DNA from: Gemmatimonadales bacterium
Lineage (GTDB): Bacteria; Gemmatimonadota; Gemmatimonadetes; Gemmatimonadales; GWC2-71-9
DNA length: 33,648 bases
Reading direction: 5' to 3'
Assembly (NCBI GenBank): GCA_050733295.1
Contig: JBOHSQ010000104.1
Location: 1-33,648, forward strand
Below are positions 2 through 33,648 of the stretch, piece after piece. How positions within the stretch are numbered: the stretch's first letter is position 1; each line of letters starts with the position of its first letter. The notes under the pieces were generated by a model. That model searched no databases. It saw only the letters and a list, made by a program, of their open reading frames with translations, and was not told the DNA's origin. Made by a program: the position numbers and the translations under genes.

Positions 2-1576
2 CCCTCCTCTTCGCTGGAACGCCACGGCATCCGCCACACGGGCACCGCGCACTGGAACCTCGTGCCGGCCGGCCTCTACGAGGAAGCGGTGCGCCGGGGC
101 GAGGGCCAGGTTGCCGCAGGCGGGCCCATCGTGGTGCTCACCACGCCGCACACCGGCCGCTCGCCCAACGACAAGTTCACGGTGGACGAGCCTGCGTCGC
201 GGGAGCGGATCTGGTGGGACAAGAACAAGGCGATGACCGAGGCGCACTTCGAGGCGCTGATGGGCGACGTGCGGGCCCACCTCGACGCGCAGCCGGAGCT
301 GTTCGTGCAGGACCTCTTCGGGGGCGCGGACGAGAAGTACCGGCTGCCGGTCCGGTTCATCACGCCGAACGCGTGGCACGCCCTGTTCGTGCGCAACATG
401 TTCATCCGCCCCGCGGTGGAGCAGCTGGCCGGGTTCACGCCGGGCTTCACCGTCTACCACGCGCCCGAACTCCAGGCCGACCCGTCCCGCCACGGCACCC
501 GGAGCGGGACGTTCATCGCCCTCACCTTCGCGCGCCGCGCGGTGGTGATCGGGGGCACGCGCTACGCGGGCGAGATGAAGAAGTCGATCTTCACCATCCT
601 CAACTACCTGCTTCCGCTCCAGGGCGTGCTGCCGATGCACTGCTCGGCGAACGTGGGCTCCTCGGGCGACGCGGCGATCTTCTTCGGGCTGTCGGGCACC
701 GGAAAGACCACGCTGTCGGCCGACCCGGCACGCCGGCTCATCGGCGACGACGAGCACGGGTGGAGCGACCGCGGGGTGTTCAACTTCGAGGGCGGGTGCT
801 ACGCCAAGGTGATCCGGCTTTCGGCGGAGGGCGAGCCGCAGATCTTCGCGGCGACGCAGTCGTTCGGCACGGTGCTGGAGAACTGCGTGCTGCACGCCGA
901 CACGCGGGGCATCGACTTCGACTCCGACCGGATCACCGAGAACACCCGGGCGAGCTATCCGATCGACTTCATCGACAACCACGAGCCGAGCGGGCAAGCG
1001 GGACACCCGAGGAACGTGGTGTTCCTGACCGCGGATGCATTCGGGGTGATGCCGCCGATCGCGCGGCTCTCGGCCGAGCAGGCGATGTACCACTTCCTGT
1101 CGGGGTACACGGCGAAGGTGGCCGGGACCGAGCGAGGGGTGACGGAGCCGTCGGCAACGTTCAGCGCCTGCTTCGGCGCGCCGTTCCTGCCGATGCATCC
1201 GGGGGTGTACGCCAAGATGCTGGGCGAGCGGATCGCGAAGCACGAGGCGCGGGTGTGGCTGGTGAACACCGGGTGGACCGGCGGGCCGTACGGCACGGGG
1301 CACCGGATGAAGCTGGCGCACACGCGGGCGATGGTCGCGGCGGCGCTGAGCGGGGGGTTGGACGGGGCGAGCTACACCAAGGATCCGGTGTTCGGGTTCG
1401 AGGTGCCGACCGCCGTGCCGGGGGTGCCCTCGGACGTGCTGCAGCCGCGGGCGACGTGGACGGACCCGGCGGGGTACGATGCGCAGGCGGGGAAGCTCGC
1501 GGAGATGTTCCGGAAGAACTTCGCCACGTTCGAGGCCGGGGTCGAGGACGCCGTTCGCAAGGCTGGGCCGCGGTAA
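2..1576 (+). CDS. pckA: phosphoenolpyruvate carboxykinase (ATP); 5' end runs off the window
   Basis: Translation has PckA hallmarks ([19 protein letters not shown] kinase motif, [16 protein letters not shown]). The frame stays open back to nt 2 ([20 protein letters not shown]...), which resembles the normal PckA N-terminus, so the GTG at 62 is probably internal. Stop TAA at 1574-1576. Confidence 0.93.
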
Positions 1577-1603: not shown

Positions 1604-2890
1604 ATGACCCGAGCCGACCCGGATTTCGAGATCATCCGCGACCCGCTCTGGGACAACATCCGGCTCGACCGCCTGACGATGGCGCTGGTGGACACGCCTG
1701 CGGTCCAGCGCCTGCGCTACGTGCGCCAGCTCGGGCACGCCTTCCTGGTCTATCCCGGCGCCACCCACACCCGCTTCGAGCACGCCCTCGGCGCGCACCA
1801 CCTGGCCAAGACCGCGCTGTCGGTGATGGCGGAGCGGGGGGAACTCGCGCGGGTGCCGGAGGAGGAGCAGGTGTCGGTGCGCCTCGCCGCACTACTCCAC
1901 GACATCGGCCACTATCCGTTCTCGCACGGGCTCGAGGAAGCCGGCTTCCCGCACCATGAACAGCTGGGCCGGACTCGCCTGGGCCAGGGGGAGCTGGCGG
2001 CGCAGCTCGAGGCGTTCGGCATCCCCGGCCTGGGCCGGCGCATCGGCGAGCTGATGACCGGCACCGGCCGGCATCCGCTGGGCGGGCTCATCTCCGGCTC
2101 GCTCGACCTCGACAAGATCGACTACCTGAGCCGCGATGCGCGGAGCTGCGGCGTCCCCTACGGTATGCTCGACGTGGACCGGCTGCTCGCCTCGCTCACG
2201 CTGGTGGAGACCGAGCGCGGCTCCGAGGTGGGGGTGCACGAGAAGGGTGTCAGCGCGCTCGAGTCGCTGCTCTTCGCCAAGTACCAGATGTACCGGAACG
2301 TGTACTGGCACCACGCGGTGCGCTCGGCCACCTGCATGTTCAAGCGCGCGGTACGGCAGGCAGTGGCGGCGGGGCACCTCACGGCGGAGTGGATCGCCTC
2401 GGCGACGGACGGAGCGCTGGTCGAGCGGCTGCTCGCGGCCGATCCGACAGGGCTGGCCACACGGGTGCACCAGCGCCGGCTCTACAAGCGGGCGCTCGAC
2501 CTGCCGGCGAGCGACGTGCCGCCCGACGCGCAGCCCTGGCTGGCGGAGGACGCGGAGCTGCTGGCGCGGGCGGAGGACGCCCTGGCGCACGAGGTGGGGC
2601 TCTCACCTGGCGAGCTGCTGCTCGACTTCCCGGCGCGAAGCGCGATGCTGGGCGTGGACCTGCCGCTCCGGACCCGGGGCGGCACGGTGGAACGGCTCAC
2701 CGACGAGGGACGCGCGGGGCAGCTCGGGCTGCCGCGGGTGGCGCAGGAACTCTACCAGAGCGCGCGGCGACTCCGGGTGTTCGTGGCGGAGACGCCGTCG
2801 CGGAAGCTGGACGGCCTGCTGGAGGCGCTCACGCTGCCCGCGGAGGAGGCGCGGGTCCGGGTGGCGACCGGGGAGGGCCTGCTGAGCTAG
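1604..2890 (+). CDS. HD-domain metal-dependent phosphohydrolase (dNTPase/SAMHD1-like, COG1078-type)
   Basis: 428-aa ORF with HTRFEHALG, LLHDIGHYPFSH and DLDKIDYLSRDA motifs typical of HD phosphohydrolases. GGAG lies 6 nt upstream of the ATG. High GC3. Confidence 0.85.
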   Translation: MTRADPDFEIIRDPLWDNIRLDRLTMALVDTPAVQRLRYVRQLGHAFLVYPGATHTRFEHALGAHHLAKTALSVMAERGELARVPEEEQVSVRLAALLHDIGHYPFSHGLEEAGFPHHEQLGRTRLGQGELAAQLEAFGIPGLGRRIGELMTGTGRHPLGGLISGSLDLDKIDYLSRDARSCGVPYGMLDVDRLLASLTLVETERGSEVGVHEKGVSALESLLFAKYQMYRNVYWHHAVRSATCMFKRAVRQAVAAGHLTAEWIASATDGALVERLLAADPTGLATRVHQRRLYKRALDLPASDVPPDAQPWLAEDAELLARAEDALAHEVGLSPGELLLDFPARSAMLGVDLPLRTRGGTVERLTDEGRAGQLGLPRVAQELYQSARRLRVFVAETPSRKLDGLLEALTLPAEEARVRVATGEGLLS

Positions 2891-2966
2891 GACGGCCGGA
2901 GACGGGAGGAGACGGGCGGGGACAGGCGGGGACGGGCGGAGGGCGGGAGGTGGCAGGCGGGAAGCG
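2891..2966 (+). repeat. G-rich tandem repeat array, period 10 (GACGGGCGGG-like, about 7 units), starts 1 nt after the HD gene stop
   Basis: gacggccgga/gacgggagga/gacgggcggg/gacaggcggg/gacgggcgga/gggcgggagg/tggcaggcgg read directly from the sequence. Confidence 0.9.
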
Positions 2967-3554: not shown

Positions 3555-3595
3555 GGCGAGACGGGCGAGACGGTCGAGACGGACGGGACGGGCAG
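3555..3595 (+). repeat. G-rich tandem nonamer array (GGCGAGACG x2, GTCGAGACG, GACGGGACG, GGCAG), starts 1 nt after the stop at 3554
   Basis: Period-9 repeat read directly. It fills the gap between convergent genes 3081..3554 (+) and 3603..5006 (-). Confidence 0.9.
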
Positions 3596-3602
3596 ATTCA
3601 GA

Positions 3603-5006: not shown

Positions 5007-5737
5007 TCCACCGCTTCGATCTTCACGACGATGGCGGTGATGTTGTCGAGCCCGCCACGGTAGTTGGCCTCGGTCACCATGCGGTCGACCCAGGCCTCGG
5101 GACCGCCCTCGGAGCCGAGGATGCGGAGCAGCTGGTCGTCCTCGAGCATGCCGGTGAGGCCGTCGGACGCGAGCAGGATGATGTCGCCGCGGCGCAGGGC
5201 GCCGAAGTAGATGTCGGGCAGGACCTCGCTGCCGGCGCCGACGCAGCGGGTGATGACGTTGCTGTAGGGATGCACGCGCGCCTGGTCGGGCGTCAGCAGC
5301 CCGGCATCCACCTGCTCCTGCACGTAGGAATGGTCCTTGGTGACCTGGAAGAACTCGCCGTCGCGAAGCAGGTAGGCGCGGCTATCGCCGACCTGGCCGA
5401 TGAGGTAGCGGCCGCGCATCAGCACCAGCACGGTGGCGGTGGTGCCCATGCCGCGCTTGTCGTGCTCGGCGAGGGTGCGCTCGTATATGGCCTCGTTGGC
5501 GGCGACGATGGCGGACTGCAGGCGGCGCGAGGCCTCGGTGTCGTCCACGCCGCGCAGGGCGCCAACCTCGCGGGCGATGATGCGCACCGCCATCTCGCTC
5601 GCCACCTCTCCCGCCGCGTGGCCGCCCATCCCGTCGGCCACCACGAAGATCCCCTTGTCCGACAGCATCAGGTAGCTGTCCTCGTTCCCGGACCGGACCA
5701 CCCCGACGTCGGTCCGCGCGGCGCAGGTGTAGTTCAC
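5003..5737 (-). CDS. PP2C-family Ser/Thr protein phosphatase (Stp/PrpC-like)
   Basis: 244 aa with RSGNEDS, ADGMGGHAAGEVAS, ASDGL and DNITAIVV motifs. GTG start lies 4 nt after the FHA gene stop. Confidence 0.9.
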   Translation of the reverse strand: MNYTCAARTDVGVVRSGNEDSYLMLSDKGIFVVADGMGGHAAGEVASEMAVRIIAREVGALRGVDDTEASRRLQSAIVAANEAIYERTLAEHDKRGMGTTATVLVLMRGRYLIGQVGDSRAYLLRDGEFFQVTKDHSYVQEQVDAGLLTPDQARVHPYSNVITRCVGAGSEVLPDIYFGALRRGDIILLASDGLTGMLEDDQLLRILGSEGGPEAWVDRMVTEANYRGGLDNITAIVVKIEAVD

Positions 5738-5741
5738 GCGG

Positions 5742-7019
5742 CTATCCGAGAATGAGGGCGGCGGCCGCGGCGAGGGCGGCGAGGATCACCACGATGACGA
5801 CCCAGCGGGTGGCGCTGCTCTGCTTCGGGGCGGCGACGACGACCGGACGGGCGGGACGGGCGGGACGGGCCGGACGGGCCGGTGCCTCGACGGGCAGACG
5901 ATCGGGCAGCGATGGCATCGGGATGGTCCGCTGCCCCTGGGTGGGCGCCGGCAGCTCCGCCGGGTCGAAGAGGACCTTCACCTCGCCGAACCGGATCGAG
6001 GCGCCCGGAGTGAGGACCGCCTCGTCGGCGACGCGTTCGCCGTCGACCCAGGTGCCGTTGGTCGAGCCCTGGTCGGTGAGGATCCAGAGCTCCTCGCGCC
6101 GCTGCAGCTTGGCGTGCACGGTGCTCACGCTCGGGTCGGACAGGACGATGTCGTTGTACTCCGCGCGGCCCACGTTCACGACCGGCGCACGGACCTGGAG
6201 CCGCTCTCCCTTCAGGTCGCCGCTCCGGACCAGGAACGCCGCAAGCGGGCGGGGGGAGGGCTCGGGCCGCGGCGGCAGCCCTGTCGCGCCCGCGCCGACG
6301 GGCAGTCCCATCAGCGTGTCGTTGAGCCGCGCGGCCGCGCCCTCGGGCAGGGGTGGCGGACCGGGCGGGGGGCCGCCTTCCGACGAGAACCGGAACTCCT
6401 CGCTGCCCACGCGGATGAGGTCGCCGCGCGCGAGCAGGATGGTCTCGGGGACGCGCCGGCCGTTCACGAAGGTGCCGTTGGCACCGCGGTCGGTGAGGCG
6501 ATAGCCCTCGGGGCCCGGGGTGATCTCGCAGTGCACCCTGGAGACGTCGTCGCCCTCGACCACGACGTCGGCTGCGGCGTCGCGCCCGATGACGAGCGGC
6601 CTCGCCTCGATGCGGTACTCGCGGCCGTCGGTGAGCGACACGAGGCGGCCGTTGGTCGCGGCCGGCCGGGCAACGGCGGTGTGGTCGGGCACGGCGCGCA
6701 ACCGCTCGGCATCGGCCAGGATGCGGGTGGCACCGGCGCGCTCTTCCTGCACCACGCGGAGCTCGTGGTCTCCCAGGAAGAGCTTGTCGCCGTGGAAGAC
6801 GGGGGTGGGTTCGGCCGAGAGCCGGACGCCGTTCAGCGTGGCCGCGGCGCCGGGGATGGGACGGACGGAAACCGATCCGGTGCGTTCGCGGGTGAGGACG
6901 AGGTGGCGCGGCCGGACGTCTTCGCCGGCGACGACCAAGTCGCACGACGAGTCGGAGCCCACCGTAAAGGAATCACCCGCGAGCGGAAACCGCTGCGAGC
7001 CGAACTCGAGTTGCAGCAT
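5742..7019 (-). CDS. membrane-anchored protein with three FHA domains
   Basis: 425 aa. Three FHA-like modules (GSDSSCDLVV...RPRHLVL; IGRDAAADVVV...SRVHCEI...TDRGANGTFVNG; VGRAEYNDIVL...VSTVHAKL...TDQGSTNGTWVDG). An (ARP)4 stretch is encoded by the nonamer repeat, followed by a C-terminal TM helix (WVVIVVILAALAAAAALILG). Confidence 0.9.
   Translation of the reverse strand: MLQLEFGSQRFPLAGDSFTVGSDSSCDLVVAGEDVRPRHLVLTRERTGSVSVRPIPGAAATLNGVRLSAEPTPVFHGDKLFLGDHELRVVQEERAGATRILADAERLRAVPDHTAVARPAATNGRLVSLTDGREYRIEARPLVIGRDAAADVVVEGDDVSRVHCEITPGPEGYRLTDRGANGTFVNGRRVPETILLARGDLIRVGSEEFRFSSEGGPPPGPPPLPEGAAARLNDTLMGLPVGAGATGLPPRPEPSPRPLAAFLVRSGDLKGERLQVRAPVVNVGRAEYNDIVLSDPSVSTVHAKLQRREELWILTDQGSTNGTWVDGERVADEAVLTPGASIRFGEVKVLFDPAELPAPTQGQRTIPMPSLPDRLPVEAPARPARPARPARPVVVAAPKQSSATRWVVIVVILAALAAAAALILG
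5844..5884 (+). repeat. G-rich nonamer array (CGGACGGGC/GGGACGGGC x4) inside the minus-strand FHA gene
   Basis: The + strand reads ccggacgggcgggacgggcgggacgggccggacgggccgg. On the coding (minus) strand it translates as [12 protein letters not shown]. Confidence 0.9.
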
Positions 7020-7087
7020 CAGAATCGGGGTCCATCCATCGGGAATCCGGGGGTGGAAAACCTATCGGCTGGCCGGCGGGGGGCGCA

Positions 7088-7163
7088 AGGAAGGCGGGCA
7101 GGCGGGCAGGACGGGCGGGACGGGCAGGACTGGCAGGACGGGCAAGACGGGCGGGAAGGGCGA
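7088..7163 (+). repeat. G-rich nonamer array (about 8 units, AGGACGGGC-like) between the ABC exporter stop and the FHA gene start
   Basis: ggaaggcgggc aggcgggc aggacgggc gggacgggc aggactggc aggacgggc aagacgggc gggaagggc read directly. One unit is 8 nt. Confidence 0.9.
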
Positions 7164-7170
7164 ACAACCA

Positions 7171-8969: not shown

Positions 8970-10058
8970 TCAGGCCGCGGGAACCGCCCGCTCCCGCCCG
9001 GGGGCCGGGTCGAGGGCCCGGAGCCCCTTCCGCACCCAGGAGTAGAAGATCGCCCCGCCCACGCCGAGGGTGATCCAGCTCGTCACCATCCGCCAGATCA
9101 TGGTATAGAGGGGCGTGAGCTCGCGTGGGACATAGCTCGACATCACGGCGGCGGAGAGGATCTCGGCGACACCGGAGCCGCCGGGCGTCGGGGCGAAGAA
9201 GTAGAGCAGGAAGGTGATCATCGTCTGCAGCAACAGGATGTCCACGAAGTGGGCCTCGATGCCCACGGCGCGCAGGGCGACGTATCCCGCCAGCAGCTTG
9301 TTCCCGTGCGACGGCCCCGAGATGAGCGTGGCCCAGAGGAGGGCGAGCCAGCCCTTCGGGGAATTGAACGCGACCACGCTCTGGTGCGCCTCGTCGAGCC
9401 CCGCCTCGATGGCCTCGAGCCGGTGGGCGAAGCGGGGATGCTTCCGCCGGGCCCAGACCGTGAGGCGGTGGAGCAGGCGGTGGAAGTGCTTCGGAAAGAG
9501 GATCACGGCGCAGAGCAGAACGCCGATGCCGACGAACAGCCAGAGGCTGCCGAGGAAGAGGTCGTAGAGCGAGAGGCCGAGGACGTCGCCCTTCTGGCCG
9601 AGGGACTTGCCGGCCCCGGCGAGGATGGCGACCGGGCCCGCGAGGGCGAAGAAGGCCACCGTGGCGATGAAGGTCATCAGCACCGCGGTGGCGGCGACGG
9701 GAACGGGAATGCCCCGGCGCCGCATGGTGTAGATCATCATCGGCGCGGCGCCCGACTGCGCCGGGGTGACGTACGCACCCCACGCGCCCATCCCCCCGGT
9801 GAGGATCAGGGACTTGAGCGAGACGTCGGGCTTGAGGTGACGGGCGACGACCCAGAGGCGGAGGCCGCCCCCGAGCCAGTCGAGGGAGGCGACGCCGACG
9901 CCGAGGAGGACCCAGCCCCAGCGGATCCCGCCGAGCGAAGCCCAGAAGGCGCCGAGGTCGTTGCCGTACCAGAGAATGCCAATGAAGGACAGGGCGGAGG
10001 CGAGGACGAAGAACTCGAAGCCCCGGAGGATCATGCGCGGCGTGAGGAGCCTGGCCAT
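8970..10058 (-). CDS. flippase-like / lysyl-PG-synthase-TM-region (UPF0104) family membrane protein
   Basis: Polytopic membrane protein of 362 aa from ATG at 10058 (MARLLTPRMILRGFEFF...). Topology and the Gly/Pro-rich loops resemble the LPG_synthase_TM family, from memory only. It ends 8 nt before the ABC gene start, so the two are likely co-transcribed. Confidence 0.55.
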   Translation of the reverse strand: MARLLTPRMILRGFEFFVLASALSFIGILWYGNDLGAFWASLGGIRWGWVLLGVGVASLDWLGGGLRLWVVARHLKPDVSLKSLILTGGMGAWGAYVTPAQSGAAPMMIYTMRRRGIPVPVAATAVLMTFIATVAFFALAGPVAILAGAGKSLGQKGDVLGLSLYDLFLGSLWLFVGIGVLLCAVILFPKHFHRLLHRLTVWARRKHPRFAHRLEAIEAGLDEAHQSVVAFNSPKGWLALLWATLISGPSHGNKLLAGYVALRAVGIEAHFVDILLLQTMITFLLYFFAPTPGGSGVAEILSAAVMSSYVPRELTPLYTMIWRMVTSWITLGVGGAIFYSWVRKGLRALDPAPGRERAVPAA

Positions 10059-10072
10059 TGAGGGGGAAACGT

Positions 10073-10120
10073 AAGGAGGGAGGGAGGGAGGGCGGGAGGG
10101 CGGTGAACGGGGGGTCGGGG
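10073..10120 (+). repeat. (GGGA)n / G-tract block in the divergent region upstream of uvrA
   Basis: aaggagggagggagggagggcgggagggcgg followed by tgaacggggggtcgggggg. Multiple G3+ runs on the + strand. Confidence 0.85.
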
Positions 10121-10176: not shown

Positions 10177-13173
10177 ATGACCGATGGCGTGATCCGCATC
10201 GTCAACGCCCGCCAGCACAACCTCCAGGGCATCACGGTGGACCTGCCGCGCCGCGCGCTGGTGGTGGTGACGGGGCCGTCGGGGTCGGGGAAGAGCTCGC
10301 TCGCGTTCGACACGCTGTATGCCGAGGGACAGCGGCGATACGTCGAGTCGCTTTCGACCTATGCGAAGCAGTTCCTCGACCGGATGCCCAAGCCGCTGGT
10401 GGACCGGCTGGAGGGGATCGCGCCCGCCGTCGCCATCGAACAGCGGAATCCCACCGTCTCGAGCCGCAGCACCGTGGGCACCGCCACGGAGGTGTACGAC
10501 TACCTGCGCCTGCTCTGGGCGCGGGCGGGGACGCCGTACTGCCGCAACTGCGGGGCGCTGGTGCGGCGGGACACGCCGGGGGGTGCTGCAGCGGCGGTGG
10601 AGACGGGTGGCGGCGGGAAGGTGGTGGTGGCCTTTCCATTGCCGACGGGCGGGACGGGCGGGACGGGCAGGACGGGCAGGACGGGCAAGACGGGCAGGGA
10701 CGGGCGGAGACGGGCAGGGACGGGCGGAGACGGGCAGGAGCGGATGCATGGGCTGATCGTCGAGTTCCTCACCGCGCTCGGGTTCGTGCGGGTGATCGCC
10801 GACGGGGTGATGCTGCACGTGGAGGAACTGCCGGCCGGGACGGACCTGGCAGCGGCGAAAGAGTTGCTGGTGGTGGTCGATAGGTTGGTAGTGAGGAAGC
10901 GGGACGGGCAGGACGGGCAGGACGGGCAGGACGGACAGGACGGGCTGGGGCGGTTGGTGGAGGCCCTGCAGACAGCATTCGCGGAGGGGGAGGGGGTGGC
11001 GGTGGTGGTGCGCGAGGACGGGAGCCGGGTGCGGTTCACCGAATTTCCGTCCTGCAGCGTGTGCGACACGCCGACGGTGCCGACCACCCCTGCCCTCTTC
11101 TCCTTCAACAACCCGCGCGGCGCATGCCAGGGATGCAACGGGTTCGGCGCGGTCCTCGAGTACGACGAGTCGCTGGTGGTGCCCGACGCCGAGCGCACGC
11201 TCCGCGGCGGGGCGATCGACCCGTGGACCAAGCCACGCTACGAGGCGCGGCGCCGGCTGCTGCTCCGGGCGGCCGAACAGGTGAGCGCCGATCCCGACAA
11301 GCCGTGGCGCGCGCTCAAGCCGGCGCATCGGCGCGAGCTGCTCTACGGCAGGATCGGGCGGTATCTCGGGATCTTCCCCTTTCTCAAGAAGCTCGAGGAG
11401 AAGCGCTACAAGCAGTACGTGCGCGTCTTCCTGCGGCAGTACCAGCTGGCCAAGACCTGCCCCTCCTGCGGCGGCACGCGGCTCAACGAGCACGCGCTGG
11501 CGGTGCGCGTGGGCGGCGAGACGATTGCGCACGCGGCATCGCTCACCATCGCAGAACTCGCCGGGTGGCTCGAGGAGCTCGACCTGCCCCCGGCGCAACG
11601 CCAGGTGGCGGATCTGGTGCTCGCCGAGGCGCGGGACCGGCTGGCATTCCTGCTGGACGTCGGCCTCGGCTACCTGTCGCTCGACCGCCAGACGCGCACG
11701 CTCTCGGGCGGCGAGGCGCAACGGATCGCCCTCTCGAATGCGCTGGGGGCGCGGCTGGTGGATGCGCTCTACGTGCTGGACGAGCCCTCGATCGGGCTTC
11801 ACCCGCGAGACACCGACCGGCTGCTCGCGGTGCTGCGCCGGCTCCGCGACTACGGAAACACGGTCGTGGTGGTGGAGCACGACCCGGCGACGATCTCCGC
11901 GGCGGACTGGATGCTGGAGCTGGGCCCCGGAGCGGGGGAGCACGGTGGGCGCGTGGTGCACGAGGGTCCGCCGGACGGCTCGGGCACATCGCTCACCGCC
12001 CAGTACCTCCGGGGGGAGCGCCGGATCGCAGTGCCGAGCCTCCGCCGGGTGGCGGGACCCCGCTGGCTCCGGATCCGGGGCGCCAGGATGCACAACCTGG
12101 CGGGCGTGGATGCGGACATCCCGCTGGGCACCCTGGTGGCGGTGACGGGCGTGTCGGGCTCGGGCAAGAGCACACTGGTGCAGGACGTCCTGTACCGGCA
12201 ACTCGAGGCCCGGCTCCACGGCGAGCACAGCGCGAAGACCCACCTGGGTGAGGAAGTGGGCGAGGTGGAGGCGCTCGAGGGCTGGGAGCGGCTCACCGAC
12301 GTGGTGCTGGTGGACCAGTCGCCGATCGGGCGGTCGCCGCGGTCGAACCCGATCACCTACGTGAAGGGCTTCGACGAGATCCGGGAGCTGTTCGCGAGCC
12401 AACCGCTGGCGCGGGCGCGGGGCTACACCGCGAGCACCTTCTCCTTCAACCTGCCGGGCGGACGGTGCGAGGCGTGCGAGGGCGCGGGGCACGTGCAGGT
12501 GGAGATGGTTTTCCTGGCCGACGTGTTCGTGCCGTGCGAGGTGTGCGAGGGGACCCGGTTCAAGGCCGAGGTGCTGGAGGTGAAAATCCACGGCCACTCG
12601 ATCCACGACGTGCTGCAGTGGACGGTCGAGGAGGCGTCCCAGCGGTTCAAGCACCAGCCCAAGCTCGGCGCGGCCCTGCACCAGCTGCGGCAGGTGGGGC
12701 TGGGCTACCTGCGGCTGGGGCAGCCGGCCACGACGCTGTCGGGTGGCGAGGCGCAGCGGCTCAAGATCGCGCGGGAGCTGACGACGGCGGGCGGGCGGGC
12801 AGGCGGACAGGCGGGCAAGCGGACCGAGGGGGGCACGAAGCTCTACATCCTCGACGAACCAACCACGGGGCTCCACCTCGAGGACGTGCGGATCCTGCTG
12901 CAGGTGTTCGACCGGCTGGTCGAGGCGGGGCATACGGTCCTGGTGATCGAGCATCACCTGGACCTGATCAAGCGGGCGGATTGGGTGATCGACCTCGGAC
13001 CGGAGGCGGGCTCGGCAGGCGGGCGGGTGGTGGCGCAGGGGCCACCGGAAGGGGTGGCGGGGGTGCCGGAATCGGTGACGGGCCGGTACCTGGAGAGGGT
13101 GCTGGAGATGGGGGGTCGGCAGCCTACGCGGCCCGAGGCTGAGGTCGGGGCCTCGGTGAGCGGTGAGCGGTGA
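10177..13173 (+). CDS. uvrA: excinuclease ABC subunit A, carrying three in-frame repeat insertions and a C-terminal tail
   Basis: 998 aa. N-terminus [37 protein letters not shown], zinc modules (CxxC pairs), two LSGGEAQR signatures, [37 protein letters not shown]. Confidence 0.97.
   Translation: [998 protein letters not shown]
10644..10740 (+). repeat. G-rich 9/10-bp repeat array inside uvrA (aa ~156-188: [31 protein letters not shown])
   Basis: Six 9-bp units (GACGGGCGG/GACGGGCAG/GACGGGCAA), then alternating 10-bp units GACGGGCAGG/GACGGGCGGA. The total keeps the ORF in frame. Confidence 0.92.
10901..10953 (+). repeat. G-rich nonamer array inside uvrA (aa ~242-259: [17 protein letters not shown])
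   Basis: GACGGGCAG x3, GACGGACAG, GACGGGCTG read directly. Confidence 0.92.
12785..12834 (+). repeat. degenerate G-rich repeat inside uvrA (aa ~870-886: [16 protein letters not shown])
   Basis: ggcgggcgggcgggcaggcggacaggcgggcaagcggaccgagggggg. It sits between the second ABC signature and its Walker B. Confidence 0.75.
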
Positions 13174-13188
13174 GCGGTGAGCGGTAGC
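13154..13188 (+). repeat. heptamer tandem repeat CGGTGAG x4 + CGGTAGC spanning the uvrA stop and reaching the stop of the convergent gene
   Basis: cggtgag cggtgag cggtgag cggtgag cggtagc. The uvrA TGA (13171-13173) lies inside unit 3. The minus-strand gene stop (13188-13190) starts at the last base of the array. Confidence 0.92.
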
Positions 13189-18352: not shown

Positions 18353-18398
18353 GCGCGACGGGCAGGACGGGCAGGACGGGCAGGACGGGCAGGAGCGG
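18353..18398 (+). repeat. G-rich nonamer array (GACGGGCAG x4), starts 1 nt after the DUF202 stop
   Basis: gcgcgacgggcaggacgggcaggacgggcaggacgggcaggagcgg read directly. Confidence 0.95.
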
Positions 18399-21481: not shown

Positions 21482-22648
21482 ATGACCATCACGCACGCGG
21501 TCTTCGAATCGTCGGCGGGTCCGTTCGCCCTCCTCTGGAACCAGGCGGGGCTCGCCGGTGTGGCCCTCGCGGCCACCGACGGGGAGCAATCCGGCACGCC
21601 GCGCGTTCCCGACGGCTCGAGCCGGGCTCGCACGGTGCCGGGCTGGGTGCGTCGCACCGCGCGGCGGGTGGGCCGCCACCTGGAGGGCAGCCCGCAGGGG
21701 TTCAGCGACGTCGCGCTCGACGTCTCACGCATCCCACCCTTCCACGCCCGGGTCCTCAAGCTGGTGCGCGGACTCGTGCCCGGCTCGGTGGTGAGCCACG
21801 CCTGGCTGGCCTCCAGGGCCAAGGAGCCCGGCGCCACGCGCGGTGTGAGCCGCGCCATCGCGGGGAATCCGTGGCCGGTCGTGGTACCGTGCCATCGCGT
21901 GGTGGCGTCGGGGGCCCATCCGGGAGGGTACAGCGGCGCCGGCGGTCTCGCCACCAAGGAATGGCTGCTGGCCGCCGAAGGGGTGCGGCTCGACCGCTCG
22001 GTGGCCGCGGGCGGGTATCGCACGACCGGCCTGGCATTCGACGCGCGCGCCGCGCTCGCGGTGCTGGGGCGGGACCCGGTCCTCCGTCCGCTGATGCGCC
22101 GGGGCGGGCCGTTCGCACCGGACCTCGCGCCGGCGCAGAGCCCGTACGAGGCGCTCGCGGAGGCGATCGTGTACCAGCAGCTGAGTGGGCGCGCGGCGGG
22201 CACGATCCATGCCCGGGTGGAGGCGCTGGGCGGGAACCGCTTCCCTTCCCCAGACCGGATGCTGGCGCTGCCGGAGGCGAAGCTGCGCGGGGCAGGCCTC
22301 TCGCGGGCCAAGACCGCCGCGATGCGCGACCTGGCACGGCGAGCGCTCGACGGCACCGTACCGGGGCTCGCCACGCTGCGCCGGCTCCCGGACGACGAGA
22401 TCGTCGAACGGCTGACCGAGGTGCGCGGCGTGGGCCGGTGGACCGTGGAGATGTTCCTGCTCTTCCGGCTGGGCCGCGGGGACGTGTGGCCGGTGGACGA
22501 CCTCGGCGTGCGCAAGGGATTCGCGCGCGCCGCCGGATTCACCGCGATGCCGACTGCGAAGGAGCTGATGGCCGAGGGCGAGCGGTGGCGCCCGTATCGC
22601 TCCGTGGCGGCCTGGTACTGCTGGCGCGCGCTCGACGCCGGGGGCTAG
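21482..22648 (+). CDS. fusion protein: O6-methylguanine-DNA methyltransferase (Ogt/MGMT) N-terminal half + DNA-3-methyladenine glycosylase II (AlkA, HhH-GPD) C-terminal half
   Basis: 388 aa. AIAGNPWPVVVPCHRVV (PCHR active site), then EAIVYQQLSGRAAGTI, LTEVRGVGRWTVEMFLLF (HhH) and WPVDDLGVRKG (catalytic Asp). Confidence 0.88.
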   Translation: MTITHAVFESSAGPFALLWNQAGLAGVALAATDGEQSGTPRVPDGSSRARTVPGWVRRTARRVGRHLEGSPQGFSDVALDVSRIPPFHARVLKLVRGLVPGSVVSHAWLASRAKEPGATRGVSRAIAGNPWPVVVPCHRVVASGAHPGGYSGAGGLATKEWLLAAEGVRLDRSVAAGGYRTTGLAFDARAALAVLGRDPVLRPLMRRGGPFAPDLAPAQSPYEALAEAIVYQQLSGRAAGTIHARVEALGGNRFPSPDRMLALPEAKLRGAGLSRAKTAAMRDLARRALDGTVPGLATLRRLPDDEIVERLTEVRGVGRWTVEMFLLFRLGRGDVWPVDDLGVRKGFARAAGFTAMPTAKELMAEGERWRPYRSVAAWYCWRALDAGG

Positions 22649-24762
22649 GCGCCGGCCTTCGTGGCGGTCCCGGCGCGGGTGGCCGCAACTCCGGCGGGAA
22701 TCGGATAGAGCCCAGTCATCGCACGCTCCCCCGACAGCATGGCCCGGGCGGTCTCGACCGCGGCGCTGGTGCCGGCGAGGGCCACCAGGTCGCCCGCGGC
22801 GAGCCTGGCGTCGGCATCGGGGAACGGGATGCGTTCCTGCCCCCGCACCAGCGCCACCACGGTGGCACCGCTCCGCCCGCGCAGGTTCAGCTCCTTCAGC
22901 GAACGGCCGACCGCCGGGCTGCCCGGCGGGATCGCGGCCGAGGTGGGCGCGCCGATGCCGGGCAGCGTCATCCGCATGACCGCCATCGAATCGGACATGC
23001 CGGCCGTCCCCTGGCGCGCGAGTGCCTCGGCCACAACCTCGGCGGTGGCCCGCACGTGGCCGCGCAGGTCGGCCGCGGTGCGCCAGATGGCGATCACGCC
23101 GAGCAGCAGGACCATCCCCAGCACACCCAGACCGCCGTAGAGCGGGACGAACGGCAGGGTCACCGCCACGAGCGGCGCGGTGATCAGCAGCACGATCATG
23201 ACCTCGATGGTGCGCTGCAGCGCGCTTCGTGGCGCGCGCGCCATGTCGAGATCGGTGGCGCGGCTGGCGAACGCCTGGTCGGCGAGCCGGCGCGCCAGCA
23301 GCCGGCCGTTGCCGATGATCCCGACGAGGAATGGGAACGTGGCCGCGAGGACCAGTGCCACGACCGCCACGCCGGCCGCCCGGGGGCTGAGGCCGAAGTC
23401 GCCCTGCAGCGCGGTCACCGCCCAGGGCCGGGTGAGCGCCGCGCCGATGACGATGGCGGCGAGCACCACCGTGTCGATCACGATCACCCGCACCTCGCGG
23501 GGGCGCGCGGCACCACGCGCCGTATCCCGGGCGGAGCGCAGCCCCTCGAGCCAGGAGCCGTACAGGCCGACCCAGGTCTGGAGCGCCTTGGGAAGCCGGC
23601 GGTCCACCCAGAGGGCGATCTCCTCCGCACGGCCGACGAGCAGCGGGGTGGCGGCGATGGTGAACACCGCGGCCGTGACGGTGACAGCGAGGAAGGAGGG
23701 ATCCACCTGGCGGGAGACCACGGCCAGCCCCGCGATGATGAACGAGAACTCGCCGATCTGGGCGAGCGAGAGCCCGGCCTGGATCGAGGTACGCACCGGA
23801 GAACCGGTGAGGAATGTGCCCACCGTCACCCCGACCAGCTTCCCCACGAACACGACCGCGGTGAAGAGGAGCGCGCTGGGCCAGACGCGCGCGACCACCG
23901 CTGGATCCACAAGCATGCCGATCGCCACGAAGAACACGGCGGCGAAGACGTCGCGCAGGGAGCGAACCGAGTCGGCCACGATGCGGCCCGCGCCGGACTC
24001 GGCCACCAGCGCGCCGGCCACGAACGCGCCCAGTGCCACGGAGAATCCGGCGCGGAGTGCGAGGATGGCAACGGCGAAGGCGAAACCGGTTGCGGCGACG
24101 ACGGTGGTCTCGGCACGGCGGAGGCGGACGACCATGCGCGCGGCGCGGGGCACGACGAGCAGGCCGGCGACGATGAGGGCAGCGACGAAGAGGCCGAGGC
24201 GGGCCATCTCGCCGCCCAGGAAGGAGGCGGAGACGCCCTGGCCACCGACGAGCGCGGTGATGCCCGCCAGCACGACGATGGCGACGAGGTCCTCGAAGAC
24301 GAGGATGCCGTAGGCGCGGTCGGCGACCTCGCCGCCCACGTGGAGCTCCTCGAAGGTGCGGGCCACGACCATCGTGGACGAAACGCAGAACACCGCACCG
24401 GCGAGGACGGCGCCGAGCGGGGAGAAGCCGAGGAGCGACGCGACGAGATAGGCGAGCGAGAAGGTCACGCCCATCTCGAGCGGAGCCACGACACCGCCGG
24501 TCGGCGCCATGCGGGCGAGCTTCTGGATGGTGAAGCCGAGGCCGAGCGAGAACATCAGGAGGATCACGCCGAGGTCGGCGAGGGTGTGGATGACCGCGAC
24601 ATCGACGGTGGGCGTGAAGGCCACGTGCGGCCCGATGAGGACGCCGGCGAGCAGGTAGCCCAGGATGACCGGGAGGTGGAAGCGTTGGAACAGGATCGTG
24701 ACCAGGGCCGCGGTGCAGAGCACAAGGGCGAGGTCGGCGACCAGGTGGAGCGGCGTGGGCAT
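22645..24762 (-). CDS. cation:proton antiporter (CPA2/Kef-type) with C-terminal RCK_C (TrkA-C) domain
   Basis: 705 aa. N-terminus LHLVADLALVLCTAALVTILFQRFHLPVILGYLLAGVLIGPH and about 12 TM segments. The C-terminal GRSLKELNLRGRSGATVVALVRGQERIPFPDADARLAAGDLVALAG is a typical TrkA-C. Confidence 0.9.
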   Translation of the reverse strand: MPTPLHLVADLALVLCTAALVTILFQRFHLPVILGYLLAGVLIGPHVAFTPTVDVAVIHTLADLGVILLMFSLGLGFTIQKLARMAPTGGVVAPLEMGVTFSLAYLVASLLGFSPLGAVLAGAVFCVSSTMVVARTFEELHVGGEVADRAYGILVFEDLVAIVVLAGITALVGGQGVSASFLGGEMARLGLFVAALIVAGLLVVPRAARMVVRLRRAETTVVAATGFAFAVAILALRAGFSVALGAFVAGALVAESGAGRIVADSVRSLRDVFAAVFFVAIGMLVDPAVVARVWPSALLFTAVVFVGKLVGVTVGTFLTGSPVRTSIQAGLSLAQIGEFSFIIAGLAVVSRQVDPSFLAVTVTAAVFTIAATPLLVGRAEEIALWVDRRLPKALQTWVGLYGSWLEGLRSARDTARGAARPREVRVIVIDTVVLAAIVIGAALTRPWAVTALQGDFGLSPRAAGVAVVALVLAATFPFLVGIIGNGRLLARRLADQAFASRATDLDMARAPRSALQRTIEVMIVLLITAPLVAVTLPFVPLYGGLGVLGMVLLLGVIAIWRTAADLRGHVRATAEVVAEALARQGTAGMSDSMAVMRMTLPGIGAPTSAAIPPGSPAVGRSLKELNLRGRSGATVVALVRGQERIPFPDADARLAAGDLVALAGTSAAVETARAMLSGERAMTGLYPIPAGVAATRAGTATKAGA

Positions 24763-24775
24763 CGGGCGAATATAC

Positions 24776-24810
24776 GGGAGGCAGGACGGGCGGGACGGGC
24801 AGGACGGGCA
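24776..24810 (+). repeat. G-rich nonamer array (AGGACGGGC-like x3-4) between the tRNA-Asn terminator and the antiporter start codon
   Basis: gggaggcaggacgggcgggacgggcaggacgggca read directly. Confidence 0.9.
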
Positions 24811-24847
24811 AAAACGAAGGCCGGTGCGCGGAGAGGCGCACCGGCCT
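24809..24847 (-). terminator. intrinsic terminator downstream of tRNA-Asn
   Basis: Perfect 12-bp stem (24818-24829 / 24836-24847) with a 6-nt loop. On the minus strand it is followed by tcgtttttg. Confidence 0.8.
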
Positions 24848-24852
24848 GGCAG

Positions 24853-24926
24853 CTCCCGAGGAGGGATTCGAACCCCCGACCCGCTGATTAACAGTCAGCT
24901 GCTCTAACCAACTGAGCTACTCGGGA
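24853..24926 (-). tRNA. tRNA-Asn (anticodon GTT)
   Basis: The reverse complement tcccgagtagctcagttggttagagcagctgactGTTaatcagcgggtcgggggttcgaatccctcctcgggag folds as a cloverleaf: 7-bp acceptor, D-arm gctc/gagc, anticodon loop ctGTTaa, T-arm with ggttcgaatcc. CCA is not encoded. Confidence 0.93.
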
Positions 24927-25570: not shown

Positions 25571-26671
25571 GTGACAATGCACCCGCTGGTGGGACACCTC
25601 GAGGCACGACGGTCCATCGCCGAGGCGGTCGGGGGCGGCAAGCTGCCCCAGACGATCCTGGTGGTGGGGCCGGCAGGGGTGGGGAAGCAGCGGTTCGGGC
25701 TCTGGGTGGCGCAGAGGACCCTTTGTAAGGATGGGCAGGACGGGGAGGTCGAGCCCTGCGGAGAGTGTCGTGAGTGCAGGCTGGTCCTGGGCCTCGCGCA
25801 CCCCGACGTGCACTGGATGATACCGGTCCCGCGGCCGAAGGCCGGCGAGGCCGACAAGCAGGTGGAAGAAGTCGAAGAGGCGATCGCGGGAGTCCTGGCC
25901 GAACGGCGGGAAAAACCGCTGTGGGGCGCACCAGACGGCCTCGCGGGACACGGAGTGGCGACGGCGCGGCTGATCGGACGGCGCGCAGTGCTCACGACGG
26001 TGGAGGGCCGAGGGCGGGTGTTCCTGGTGGGCGACGCGGAGCGGCTCGCGGTTCAGGAAGGCCAGGAGGATGCAGCCAACGCGCTGCTCAAGCTCCTGGA
26101 GGAACCGCCGGGGGGCACGACGTTCGTGCTGACGGCATCGGAGCCGCGGCGGCTCCTGGCGACGATCCGGTCGCGGGCGGTGGCGGTGAGGCTGGGAAGG
26201 CTCACGGACGACGAGGTCCGGGACTTCCTGTCGGCGCGCCTCGACCCGGCGCCCAAGGGGAAGGACCTGGAGGAACGGGTGCGGCGCGCGGAAGGGGCGA
26301 TCGGCGCCGCACTGAGTGACGATGCGGACGAGGCCGCCAAGGCGTATCGCGACGCAGGCACCTTCCTCGAGGCGGTACTGGCGGGACCGGAGACGCGGCT
26401 GGGCGCGGCACTGTCGCAGGGACCGTTCGCGGCACGGGGCGGGTTCACCGCGATGCTCGACGCAATGGCGGACCTGCTGGGCGAGGCGGCGCGCGAGGCG
26501 GCGGGCGGCAAGGCGAGACGGCCGATTCCGCGGGGACTGGGGCGGCGCCCGCTGGACGCGCTGCTGGATGCGCAGGGCCGGGTGGCAGTGGCGCGGGAGG
26601 CGGCGCAGGGGAACGTGAATCCGCAGTTGCTGGCGGGGGTGCTGGGAGTGGAGCTAGGGGCGAGGCTATGA
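25571..26671 (+). CDS. holB: DNA polymerase III subunit delta' (clamp-loader AAA+ subunit)
   Basis: [20 protein letters not shown] (P-loop), zinc module C..x..[41 protein letters not shown] and SRAVAVRL (sensor). GTG 25571 or ATG 25577 as start. Confidence 0.85.
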
Positions 26672-27198
26672 CGGGCGGGGCGGGCGGGACGGGCGGGAAG
26701 CTCTCGCACCTGGACGAGGAAGGACGGCCCCGGATGGTGGATGTCGGGGCGAAGGCGGTGACGGCGCGGGAAGCCGTCGCCTCGGGCTCGGTGAGGATGA
26801 GCCCGGAAGCCCTGAAGGCGCTGGCATCGGGCCTTCCCAAGGGCGAAGTGCTCCGCACCGCGGAGCTGGCCGGCACCCTGGCGGCGAAGCAGACGAGCGT
26901 CCTGATCCCGCTCTGTCACCCGCTGCCGCTCGACACGGTCGAGGTCCGGGCCGAACCGGACACGGGAATGCCGGGCGTGCGAATCACCGCCACAGTGCGC
27001 GCGACCGCGCGCACGGGCGTGGAGATGGAAGCGCTGACCGCAGTCGCCGTCGCGTGCCTGACCGTCTACGACATGGTCAAGGCCGTGGACCGCGGGATGA
27101 CGATCGAAGACATCCGCCTGCTCCGGAAATCCGGTGGAGCGCGCGGCGACTGGGCGAGGCCAGCCGGTCCGGAGGCCAGTCCCGAGGAGGCACGGTGA
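26668..27198 (+). CDS. moaC: cyclic pyranopterin monophosphate synthase
   Basis: [62 protein letters not shown] overlap with the holB stop. The N-terminal [11 protein letters not shown] is encoded by a G-rich repeat (26670-26700). Confidence 0.93.
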
Positions 27199-33496: not shown

Positions 33497-33569
33497 GTGA
33501 GGGCGGTGGGGATCGAACCCACGACCGTCGGATTAAAAGTCCGCTGCTCTCCCAACTGAGCTACGCCCT
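33497..33569 (-). tRNA. tRNA-Lys (anticodon TTT)
   Basis: The reverse complement gagggcgtagctcagttgggagagcagcggactTTTaatccgacggtcgtgggttcgatccccaccgccctca has a 7-bp acceptor gagggcg/cgccctc, D-arm gctc/gagc, anticodon loop ctTTTaa and T-arm gtggg/cccac. There is one mismatch at the top of the anticodon stem. Confidence 0.9.
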
Positions 33570-33648
33570 CACCGGGAAACGTCGCATCGGGAAGCGCCCC
33601 GTACAAGACGTCCGGGGGAGGGGGCTACGCCTGTACAAGACCCCAGGG

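Follow-up and report, generated by a model that had tools for sequence, protein, structure and literature searches.

uvrA and the arrays it contains

The DNA considered here is a contig of 33,648 nucleotides from a Gemmatimonadales soil bacterium (assembly GCA_050733295.1, contig JBOHSQ010000104.1), referred to at its full length as the window, which carries on its forward (+) strand a gene for the excision repair ATPase UvrA. Within the uvrA coding sequence lie three in-frame tandem arrays of a short G-rich repeat family, GACGGGCRG, whose basic unit is 9 bp and which also occurs in 10-bp and 8-bp variants. The unit forms of the family are written below as GACGGGCAG and GACGGGCAGG, and the 8-bp variant as GGCGGGCA. 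The gene and its arrays are arranged as follows.

10177..13173, + strand: uvrA coding sequence, 998 residues plus stop, identified by profile, structure and motif evidence
10644..10739, + strand: array 1, GACGGGCRG(R) at 9-bp and then 10-bp spacings; net gain of 28 codons against a 6-residue empty site; three canonical G-quadruplex (G4) motifs
10902..10947, + strand: array 2, (DGQ)4DGL encoded by five 9-bp units; one canonical G4 motif
12786..12822, + strand: array 3, 8-bp variant GGCGGGCA in about 4.6 copies; gain of 10 codons; no canonical G4 motif

The product of the open reading frame (ORF) at 10177-13173 is a complete class I UvrA. It scores 1023.5 bits against the TIGR00630 profile, well above the cut-off of 729.8, and 1046 bits against NF001503, which is under the stricter cut-off of 1147 for that model. 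The protein aligns from end to end with the solved UvrA structures 2R6F (1.4e-250), 3PIH and 3ZQJ, and its Pfam matches include the UvrA DNA-binding domain and the UvrA interaction domain PF17760 (residues 187-280), the latter locating the UvrB-binding domain that is missing in class II UvrA. Besides both ATP-binding cassette (ABC) modules and the zinc modules, the protein has the UvrB-binding domain and an insertion domain, which is short. In a multiple alignment of 121 UvrA sequences, including that of the window, the columns of the Walker A, Walker B, signature and H-loop motifs (G33-S40, L509-E513, D535-P537, H568, G658-S665, L854-E858, D893-P895, H926) and those of the zinc-binding cysteine pairs (122/125, 293/296, 317/320, 428/431, 764/767, 787/790) are invariant.

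The three arrays had been noticed in an initial annotation that was made from the letters of the window, and both Tandem Repeats Finder and the translated ORF bear them out. The program reports array 1 at 10644-10739 with period 9 and 10.2 copies (and also with a period of 18-20), array 2 at 10902-10945 with period 9, 4.9 copies and 94% matches, and array 3 at 12786-12822 with period 8, unit GGCGGGCA and 4.6 copies. The encoded peptides are identical to those first quoted, and the edges given for arrays 2 and 3 were off by only 1-3 nt. The 18-mer GACGGGCRGGACGGGCRG, allowing at most two mismatches, occurs 27 times in the window as against 0.13 times in shuffled sequence (maximum 2). The length added by array 2 depends on the reference, being 9 codons against the nearest relatives and 13 against the usual 8-residue loop.

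Successive units of array 1 are spaced by 9, 9, 9, 9, 9, 10, 10, 10 and 10 bp, and because of this mixed spacing the reading register drifts across the three sense frames of the unit. The walk of the register that the initial annotation described can be followed codon by codon, from TG[GR] through DGR, RRA and GTG to GDGQ. The 9-bp units, which form the whole of array 2 and one half of array 1, are a multiple of three, whereas the 10-bp and 8-bp units are not. Array 3 is assigned to the same family since 8-bp and 9-bp units intergrade within single arrays elsewhere (at 7093-7164 in the window, and at 21669-21736 on the related contig L081 introduced below); on its 3' side the ancestral loop QAGK..G.K can still be recognised. 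All three arrays lie on the sense strand of uvrA, where the three frames of the unit, TG[GR], DGQ and RAG, specify small or polar residues. Read in all six frames the unit holds no stop codon, so that it is able to extend into ORFs, and any array whose length is divisible by three will therefore give a flexible loop of Gly, Arg, Thr, Asp and Gln.

The initial annotation regarded all three tracts as G4-prone, but only two of them are canonical. Arrays 1 and 2 satisfy the canonical motif (G3N1-7 x4), and the RNA fold predicted for them contains three and one three-layer quadruplexes, respectively; for array 1 the predicted RNA energy is -72 kcal/mol when quadruplexes are allowed and -39 kcal/mol when they are not. 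Array 3 departs from the canonical motif, with three G3 runs separated by 1-nt loops and then a loop of 13 nt, and only a two-layer structure is predicted. Across the window there are 21 canonical G4 motifs on the + strand and one on the - strand, and mononucleotide shuffles give 15.6 and 3.7. As the shuffles come near the observed counts, the raw number of motifs is weak evidence and it is the tandem arrays that constitute the signal. Judged from these motif and folding predictions, quadruplex formation by arrays 1 and 2 would be expected. A literature search for uvrA together with G-quadruplexes in bacteria gave nothing relevant.

Loop lengths in relatives and position in the protein

The species-representative genomes closest to the window are metagenome-assembled genomes of Gemmatimonadales with only about 70% protein identity. 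The window protein was compared, for loop lengths, with its 120 best hits from a large protein collection (the 121 sequences mentioned above), in which the exact window UvrA is absent. The best match, P0001, is 86% identical, has 977 residues and forms a cluster with a single member. The next four matches have 939-949 residues and an identity of 78-79% by the search table, or 81-82% by the multiple alignment, and most of the other listed matches are about 70% identical with 930-940 residues. Four relatives were followed to their contigs, namely P0001 (contig L081), P0005 (L203), P0002 (L204) and P0040 (L082). The three sites compare as follows.

Site 1, flanks FPLP ... H..IVE: 6 residues in 119 of 121 sequences; 34 in the window; 22 in P0001
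Site 2, flanks VVVDRL ... RLxE: 8 residues in 106 of 121 (range 6-40); 21 in the window; 14 in P0001
Site 3, flanks AREL ... KLYILDEP: 9 residues in 119 of 121; 19 in the window; 21 in P0001

Sites 1 and 3 are thus longer only in the window and in P0001, and site 2 is a naturally variable loop. Alignment with the Geobacillus and Thermotoga proteins leaves 11-residue gaps opposite sites 2 and 3, the latter gap lying between ...AxEL and LYILDEP and so within the linker from signature II to Walker B, where array 3 had originally been placed. The short loops of the relatives, taken with the gaps in the structures, mark the inserts as lineage-specific additions and not as ancient parts of UvrA. At the DNA level the same is seen on L203 and L204 (about 81% identity), where the sites are empty and the neighbourhood is fully syntenic. 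The arrangement common to the window, L081, L203 and L204 consists of PEPCK, HD and ABA4-like genes on the + strand (PEPCK is not on the shorter L204 contig) and of aldehyde dehydrogenase, PP2C, FHA, ABC and LPG-synthase genes on the - strand, with uvrA next; on L082 only the block from PP2C to uvrA is kept.

The two genomes that carry inserts at all three sites differ at each of them. At site 1 the 9-bp units of both are in the TG[GR] frame; L081 has six of them, and the window has a further 10-bp section (5x9 + 5x10 bp). Site 2 holds four 10-bp units on L081 and five 9-bp units in the window, and at site 3 the four 10-bp units of L081 follow the ancestral QAGR codons, whereas the 8-bp units of the window precede QAGK..G.K. 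Every array version in the two genomes is in frame, and no frameshifted copy was seen in these two alleles, which fits the earlier proposal that selection acts on the total length of the inserts, a relative with other unit numbers and lengths being likewise in frame. The peptide sequences differ between the two carriers, and selection would bear on the reading frame and on the remaining protein rather than on the peptides.

The empty sites of the relatives contain near-unit sequences exactly at the positions of the arrays, namely GCG CGG GCG GAC at site 1 (L204), CGG GAC GGG GCC at site 2 (L203) and CAG GCG GGC CGG at site 3 (L203, and also L204). Moreover, P0040 (73% identity) has its own GACGGGCAG-type array at site 2, with a loop of 40 residues, and its 21.7-kb contig L082 contains no further array of the family. 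The array of L082 is of independent origin and is counted here in favour of birth in place.

The ratio of nonsynonymous to synonymous substitution rates (dN/dS) for uvrA comes to 0.22 when the window is compared with L081, and to 0.11 for the array-free pair L203 and L204. These ratios, together with the invariant catalytic and zinc-binding columns, indicate that uvrA remains under purifying selection and that the gene is in all likelihood functional.

The position of the inserts was examined in an AlphaFold2 model built from the 121-sequence alignment, with a mean predicted local distance difference test score (pLDDT) of 78 and a predicted template modelling score (pTM) of 0.72; its template modelling score (TM-score) against the structures 2r6f_A and 3uwx_A is 0.81-0.89 (0.84-0.89 for 3uwx_A). 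All three sites are modelled as coil with pLDDT below 50, site 1 (158-184) between the strand 147-154 and the helix 185-201, site 2 (244-253) between the strand 230-239 and the helix 253-270, and site 3 (873-885) between the signature II helix 856-875 and the Walker B strand 887-893. Low confidence, with pLDDT below 50, is also given to the C-terminal tail (980-998). Sites 1 and 2 occupy strand-to-helix loops of the UvrB-binding domain, site 2 directly after VVVDRL, and site 3 belongs to the second ABC module. The assignment of the first two arrays to the region of the UvrB-binding domain is thus upheld, both being inside or beside the PF17760 match, and the suggestion that the inserts lie at surface loops agrees with a model that would place them outside the folded core. 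In the paper on Mycobacterium tuberculosis UvrA (PMC3167621), residues 155-200 of the UvrB-binding domain are described as disordered in the Geobacillus and Thermotoga crystals; by a rough correspondence (window residue 196 to residue 189 of the M. tuberculosis protein) site 1 falls inside that stretch. Disorder is in keeping with where the loops lie and with their Gly/Thr/Arg/Asp/Gln composition. It has also been reported that UvrB makes contact with opposite protomers, at the UvrB-binding domain and at signature domain II (PMC11985968).

A strand-polar repeat family

The arrays in uvrA are members of a family that is dense in this genome region. A search for chains of the core ACGGGC returned about 10 arrays in the 33.6-kb window and about 16 in the 22.9-kb contig L081, all of them on the + strand, and with strict calling the ratio of + to - arrays is 7:0 in the window and 13:0 on L081, with at most three in any other contig examined. 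The window is 70% G+C and its GC skew is positive in each 2-kb block. The coding bases are split almost evenly between the strands (14.5 kb and 14.3 kb), and the GC skew is still +0.07 after the arrays have been masked. One-stranded arrays, an even coding split and a skew that survives masking together argue that the polarity follows the strand of the chromosome and not the direction of the genes, and the + strand would then presumably be the leading strand. Solitary GACGGGC heptamers outside the arrays are distributed 10:1 between the strands. The arrays of the window outside uvrA are given below.

2891..2961, + strand: family array of 10-bp units, directly after the stop of a + gene (orthologue of the L081 HD-domain gene)
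3555..3596, + strand: family array, directly after the stop of a + gene orthologous to the L081 ABA4-like gene
5843..5882, + strand: family array inside the - strand FHA-domain gene; the C-rich strand is in frame as (ARP)4
7093..7164, + strand: family array, 8-bp grading into 9-bp units, between two - genes and just upstream of the FHA gene start
18357..18394, + strand: four perfect GACGGGCAG units between two + genes, 5 nt after a stop codon
24780..24812, + strand: family array upstream of a - gene whose L081 orthologue is the Na/H-exchanger gene, and about 40 nt 3' of tRNA-Asn (- strand)
26670..26698, + strand: family array overlapping the TGA stop of a + gene that ends at 26671

Six of the 10 window arrays are intergenic, in a window of which, by a rough estimate, about nine tenths is coding. 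Four of these six abut the stop codons of + genes (2891, 3555, 18357, 26670) and two lie upstream of - genes (7093, 24780). The L081 arrays at 2595 and 3258, like these four of the window, start at the stop codon of the preceding + gene or overlap it, and an example of such a junction is T-GAC, in which TGA is the stop and GAC the start of the first unit. Expansion of the arrays seems to go on as far as coding constraint allows. In the FHA gene (5742-7061, - strand) the (ARP)4 stretch is found just before a C-terminal hydrophobic segment, and the orthologous gene on L081 contains several larger arrays (5579-5683, 6028-6081). The array at 24780..24812 is also present on L081, where it is longer, and throughout the two contigs orthologous arrays differ in copy number and unit length. 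The two tRNA genes of the window, tRNA-Asn (GTT; 24852-24926) and tRNA-Lys (TTT; 33497-33570), are both on the - strand; as the stop-to-stop ORF 22645-24894 overlaps tRNA-Asn, the real start of the gene in this ORF must be downstream of the repeat array. An Rfam scan of the window found only these two tRNAs and no RNA family over the arrays.

Both ends of uvrA carry further tracts.

10075..10103, + strand: G-tract array of GGGA/GGGAGGGC units, upstream of the uvrA start and on the uvrA sense strand
13154..13185, + strand: heptamer array (CGGTGAG)n across the uvrA stop, encoding the end of a lineage-specific C-terminal tail; a separate repeat family

The upstream tract is in a divergent spacer in which L081 has a family array of 9/10-bp units (9888-9975), from which it follows that the promoter or leader of uvrA is also occupied by repeats. 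At the end of uvrA other heptamers are found in the relatives, (CAGCTAT)n and (AGTCGCG)n on L081, (GGGAGAG)n on L203 and (GGGGAGC)n on L204, and on L203 and L204 an inverted C-rich array just downstream could form a long hairpin between convergent genes.

The next relatives are nearly without the family. An exact family 18-mer had no match in 1.2 Mb of sequence from 80 other Gemmatimonadales uvrA neighbourhoods, where a looser chain search gave hits at chance level only. On L204 the spacers orthologous to those at 2891 and 3555 of the window contain 8-bp arrays, GACGGGAA x3 at 1409-1434 (+) and GACGGGAC x3 at 2023-2048 (-), so that occupancy of these spacers by repeats would be older than the present unit. 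A literature search on repeats or quadruplexes in Gemmatimonadota found nothing specific.

Beyond this lineage, the exact sequence (GACGGGCAG)3 is present in at least 120 metagenome contigs of 50-77% G+C, usually with one array each, and about one fifth of the non-terminal arrays have an ORF-like context. These include (DGQ)n in frame in an acyl-CoA dehydrogenase (L143, L187), inside the match to its C-terminal domain, (DGQ)n in frame near the C-terminus of a protein resembling the small chain of ribonucleotide reductase (L170), and (LPV)n in frame between the domains of an aspartate-oxidase-like flavoprotein (L149). In-frame nonamer arrays are thus not unique to uvrA, and of the unusual character that the initial annotation gave to this case the choice of host gene stands, whereas the in-frame nonamer itself recurs in other enzymes on unrelated metagenome contigs. 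What is distinctive of this lineage is the local density of the arrays and their strict polarity. Only the window and L081 are array-dense contigs; in 120 contigs with (GACGGGCAG)3, mostly short and with a single array, the orientation of the array agrees with GC skew in 53 and disagrees in 51, a result that is uninformative for contigs of this sort. Of 126 metagenome arrays of the unit, 41 are at contig ends, which suggests that repeat arrays break assemblies.

The 10-bp units create GGGCAGGG, which fits the consensus GGGNAGGG of the FtsK-orienting polar sequences (KOPS) of E. coli, and a KOPS-like role was rejected, GGGNAGGG outside the arrays being distributed 5:6 between the strands and hence without polarity. 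The octamer GCTGGTGG, which in E. coli is Chi, is skewed 12:2 between the strands of the window, and this may reflect no more than GC skew, since many G-rich octamers are similarly skewed.

Origin of the arrays, rival explanations and known systems

In the explanation that we consider probable, the uvrA arrays are hypermutable G-rich repeats born by slippage and tolerated in disordered loops, rather than copies of a mobile sequence. Short near-unit sequences already present at the three codon positions would have acted as seeds on which replication slippage produced young tandem arrays in place, and these would belong to a genome-wide, strand-polar family of 8-10-bp G-rich repeats that is located mainly at the ends of intergenic spacers in a narrow lineage of Gemmatimonadales. 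Within uvrA the arrays would persist only in three solvent-exposed connecting loops where added residues are harmless, while purifying selection would remove lengths that shift the frame and preserve the remainder of UvrA, so that the inserts would be tolerated, near-neutral passengers rather than functional modules. It is the differing in-frame arrays of the two carriers, the near-units in the empty sites and the lone array of L082 that point to repeated birth in place and turnover by slippage. The initial annotation spoke of a gene colonised by copies of a repeat, a term that this evidence does not favour, and of an essential ATPase. uvrA is non-essential in most bacteria, and its tolerance of inserts is therefore less remarkable than was first stated.

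Several observations sit uneasily with neutral slippage. Slippage from random starting sequences alone would leave the single unit shared by all arrays unexplained, and something more is needed, be it a bias towards this unit, copying from array to array, or selection. Of the four intragenic arrays of the window, three are in uvrA, which accounts for about 10% of its coding sequence (post-hoc binomial probability about 0.004), and this concentration, with the G-tract on the promoter side and the heptamer array over the stop codon, may not be neutral. The inserts are carried by only two genomes, and low pLDDT at residues missing from homologues is partly expected and is on its own weak proof of the disorder that the model suggests. 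Finally, all three arrays are on the sense strand, on which comparable repeats of Xanthomonas and Nostoc are under-represented within ORFs (PMC4692102).

Among the rival readings is a regulatory or contingency device, which is unlikely. Quadruplexes on the non-template strand or in the mRNA would throttle uvrA, or the gain and loss of units would shift its frame reversibly and so switch excision repair off and on in a subpopulation. The ORFs of both genomes do contain units that are not a multiple of three (10 bp in array 1 and 8 bp in array 3 of the window, 4x10 bp at sites 2 and 3 of L081), arrays 1 and 2 have canonical G4 motifs on the sense strand with a predicted gain from -39 to -72 kcal/mol in array 1, a further G-tract precedes the start codon and the arrays evidently change fast. 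Nevertheless, both alleles are in frame with no frameshifted copy seen, four 10-bp copies are few next to classical contingency loci, uvrA is not a surface or host-interaction gene of the type that is usually phase-variable, a dN/dS of 0.22 speaks for continuous selection on the protein, and the quadruplexes are predicted structures. Somewhat less likely still is that the peptides are of adaptive value, with the Arg/Gly-rich loop in the UvrB-binding domain, and likewise the extended basic loop by signature domain II, tuning contacts with UvrB, Mfd or DNA. This would accord with the many Arg-Gly pairs from array 1, with inserts in the UvrB-binding domain and directly after the signature II helix, with the contacts that UvrB makes on opposite protomers with that domain and with signature domain II (PMC11985968), and with the retention of inserts at all three sites across 14% protein divergence between two lineages; it conflicts with the differences in frame, length and site 3 position between the two genomes, which are the opposite of selection on a peptide, with the production of DGQ, TGR or RAG from one DNA unit by register alone, and with loops at sites 1 and 3 whose short length does not vary in 119 of 121 relatives.

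An equally doubtful suggestion is that the arrays arrived as ready-made blocks, carried by a mobile element or copied by ectopic gene conversion or templated repair, and in its favour one unit and one strand are common to all arrays, and the family, dense in this lineage, is almost missing from the next relatives. A mobile element of the miniature inverted-repeat (MITE) or insertion-sequence (IS) type was looked for and rejected, as the arrays are pure tandem units with ragged ends that have neither terminal inverted repeats nor duplicated flanks at a target site, nor an associated gene. Import in any form is also at odds with empty sites that already hold near-units, with site 3 arrays that differ between the two genomes in unit length and insertion codon, and with the array at site 2 of L082, on a contig that has no other member of the family. 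That a misassembly placed an intergenic repeat in uvrA is scarcely credible: the repeat does disturb assembly, judging from the 41 of 126 metagenome arrays at contig ends, but the same three loops are occupied by arrays on L081, which was assembled independently and from a different sample, and the arrays of the window are all shorter than 100 bp and lie exactly in frame in one uninterrupted ORF.

A broader form of the regulatory idea, which we hold to be very unlikely, is that the five slippage-prone G-rich tracts (one upstream of uvrA, three within it and one across its stop) together adjust nucleotide excision repair, like a dial that is hypermutable or that depends on quadruplexes. If so, there would be subpopulations with altered repair and mutation rates, and UvrA levels could be coupled to the load of non-B DNA that the family makes throughout the genome. 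The locus is of interest in that two UvrA loops of otherwise invariant length (sites 1 and 3) naturally accept 10-28 extra residues that are predicted to be disordered. Such permissive loops would be useful for tagging or engineering UvrA and other ABC ATPases, and the lineage could be used to study the birth, spread and policing by selection of quadruplex-prone repeats at gene boundaries and within genes.

On present evidence neither a new repair mechanism nor a new class of genetic element is revealed, and the feature belongs to known kinds, namely dispersed quadruplex-prone simple repeats and in-frame intragenic tandem repeats; what is unusual is the host gene and the strictness of the strand polarity. 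The protein itself is comparable with the class I UvrA of Geobacillus (2R6F/3UWX), Thermotoga (3PIH) and Mycobacterium (3ZQJ), with which it shares the full domain set, all catalytic motifs and 42-45% identity, and from which it differs by about 28, 9-13 and 10 additional residues in three loops and by an extended C-terminal tail; the insertion domain is short, as in its Gemmatimonadales relatives. In-frame intragenic tandem repeats, including variable-number tandem repeats (VNTRs), are known in bacterial genes, and the uvrA arrays resemble them in being slippage-prone, in that only frame-keeping lengths survive, and in the difference in copy number between close relatives. The host here, however, is a conserved cytoplasmic repair ATPase and not a surface protein, three arrays are found in one gene, and unit lengths are mixed with a drifting register. 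The 10-bp and 8-bp units, though not the 9-bp ones, are like the repeats of the phase-variable loci of Haemophilus and Neisseria in being intragenic and not a multiple of three, so that a change of one such unit would shift the frame, but no off-state allele was observed in the two genomes, there are only about four units of 8-10 bp, and the gene class is atypical. According to Lin and Kussell (2012), as cited in PMC4692102, simple sequence repeats (SSRs) are suppressed in the central part of coding sequences in prokaryotes.

The closest likeness is to the GGGNATC heptamers of Xanthomonas and Nostoc, which are quadruplex-forming G-rich SSRs with a bias towards non-coding DNA, being found close to a stop codon when on the sense strand, or upstream of an ORF when in antisense orientation (Rehm et al. 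2015, PMC4692102). Both consist of short G-rich units with one G3 run each, repeated in tandem about four or more times, variable in copy number, dispersed at many loci and strongly biased to non-coding DNA. The window family fits the description of dispersed G-rich SSRs (a unit of 6-9 nt with a G3 run at many loci, here in two genome regions) and also their placement, near stops or upstream of - ORFs, to which the three uvrA arrays are the exceptions. As the published class is under-represented inside ORFs on their coding strand, three sense-strand arrays in one gene are atypical of it. Beyond this, the units here are 9 bp long, with 10-bp and 8-bp variants, in contrast to the 7 bp of the published repeats, the quadruplexes are predicted ones, the phylum is Gemmatimonadota, and all the arrays of the 33.6-kb window occupy one strand of the chromosome.

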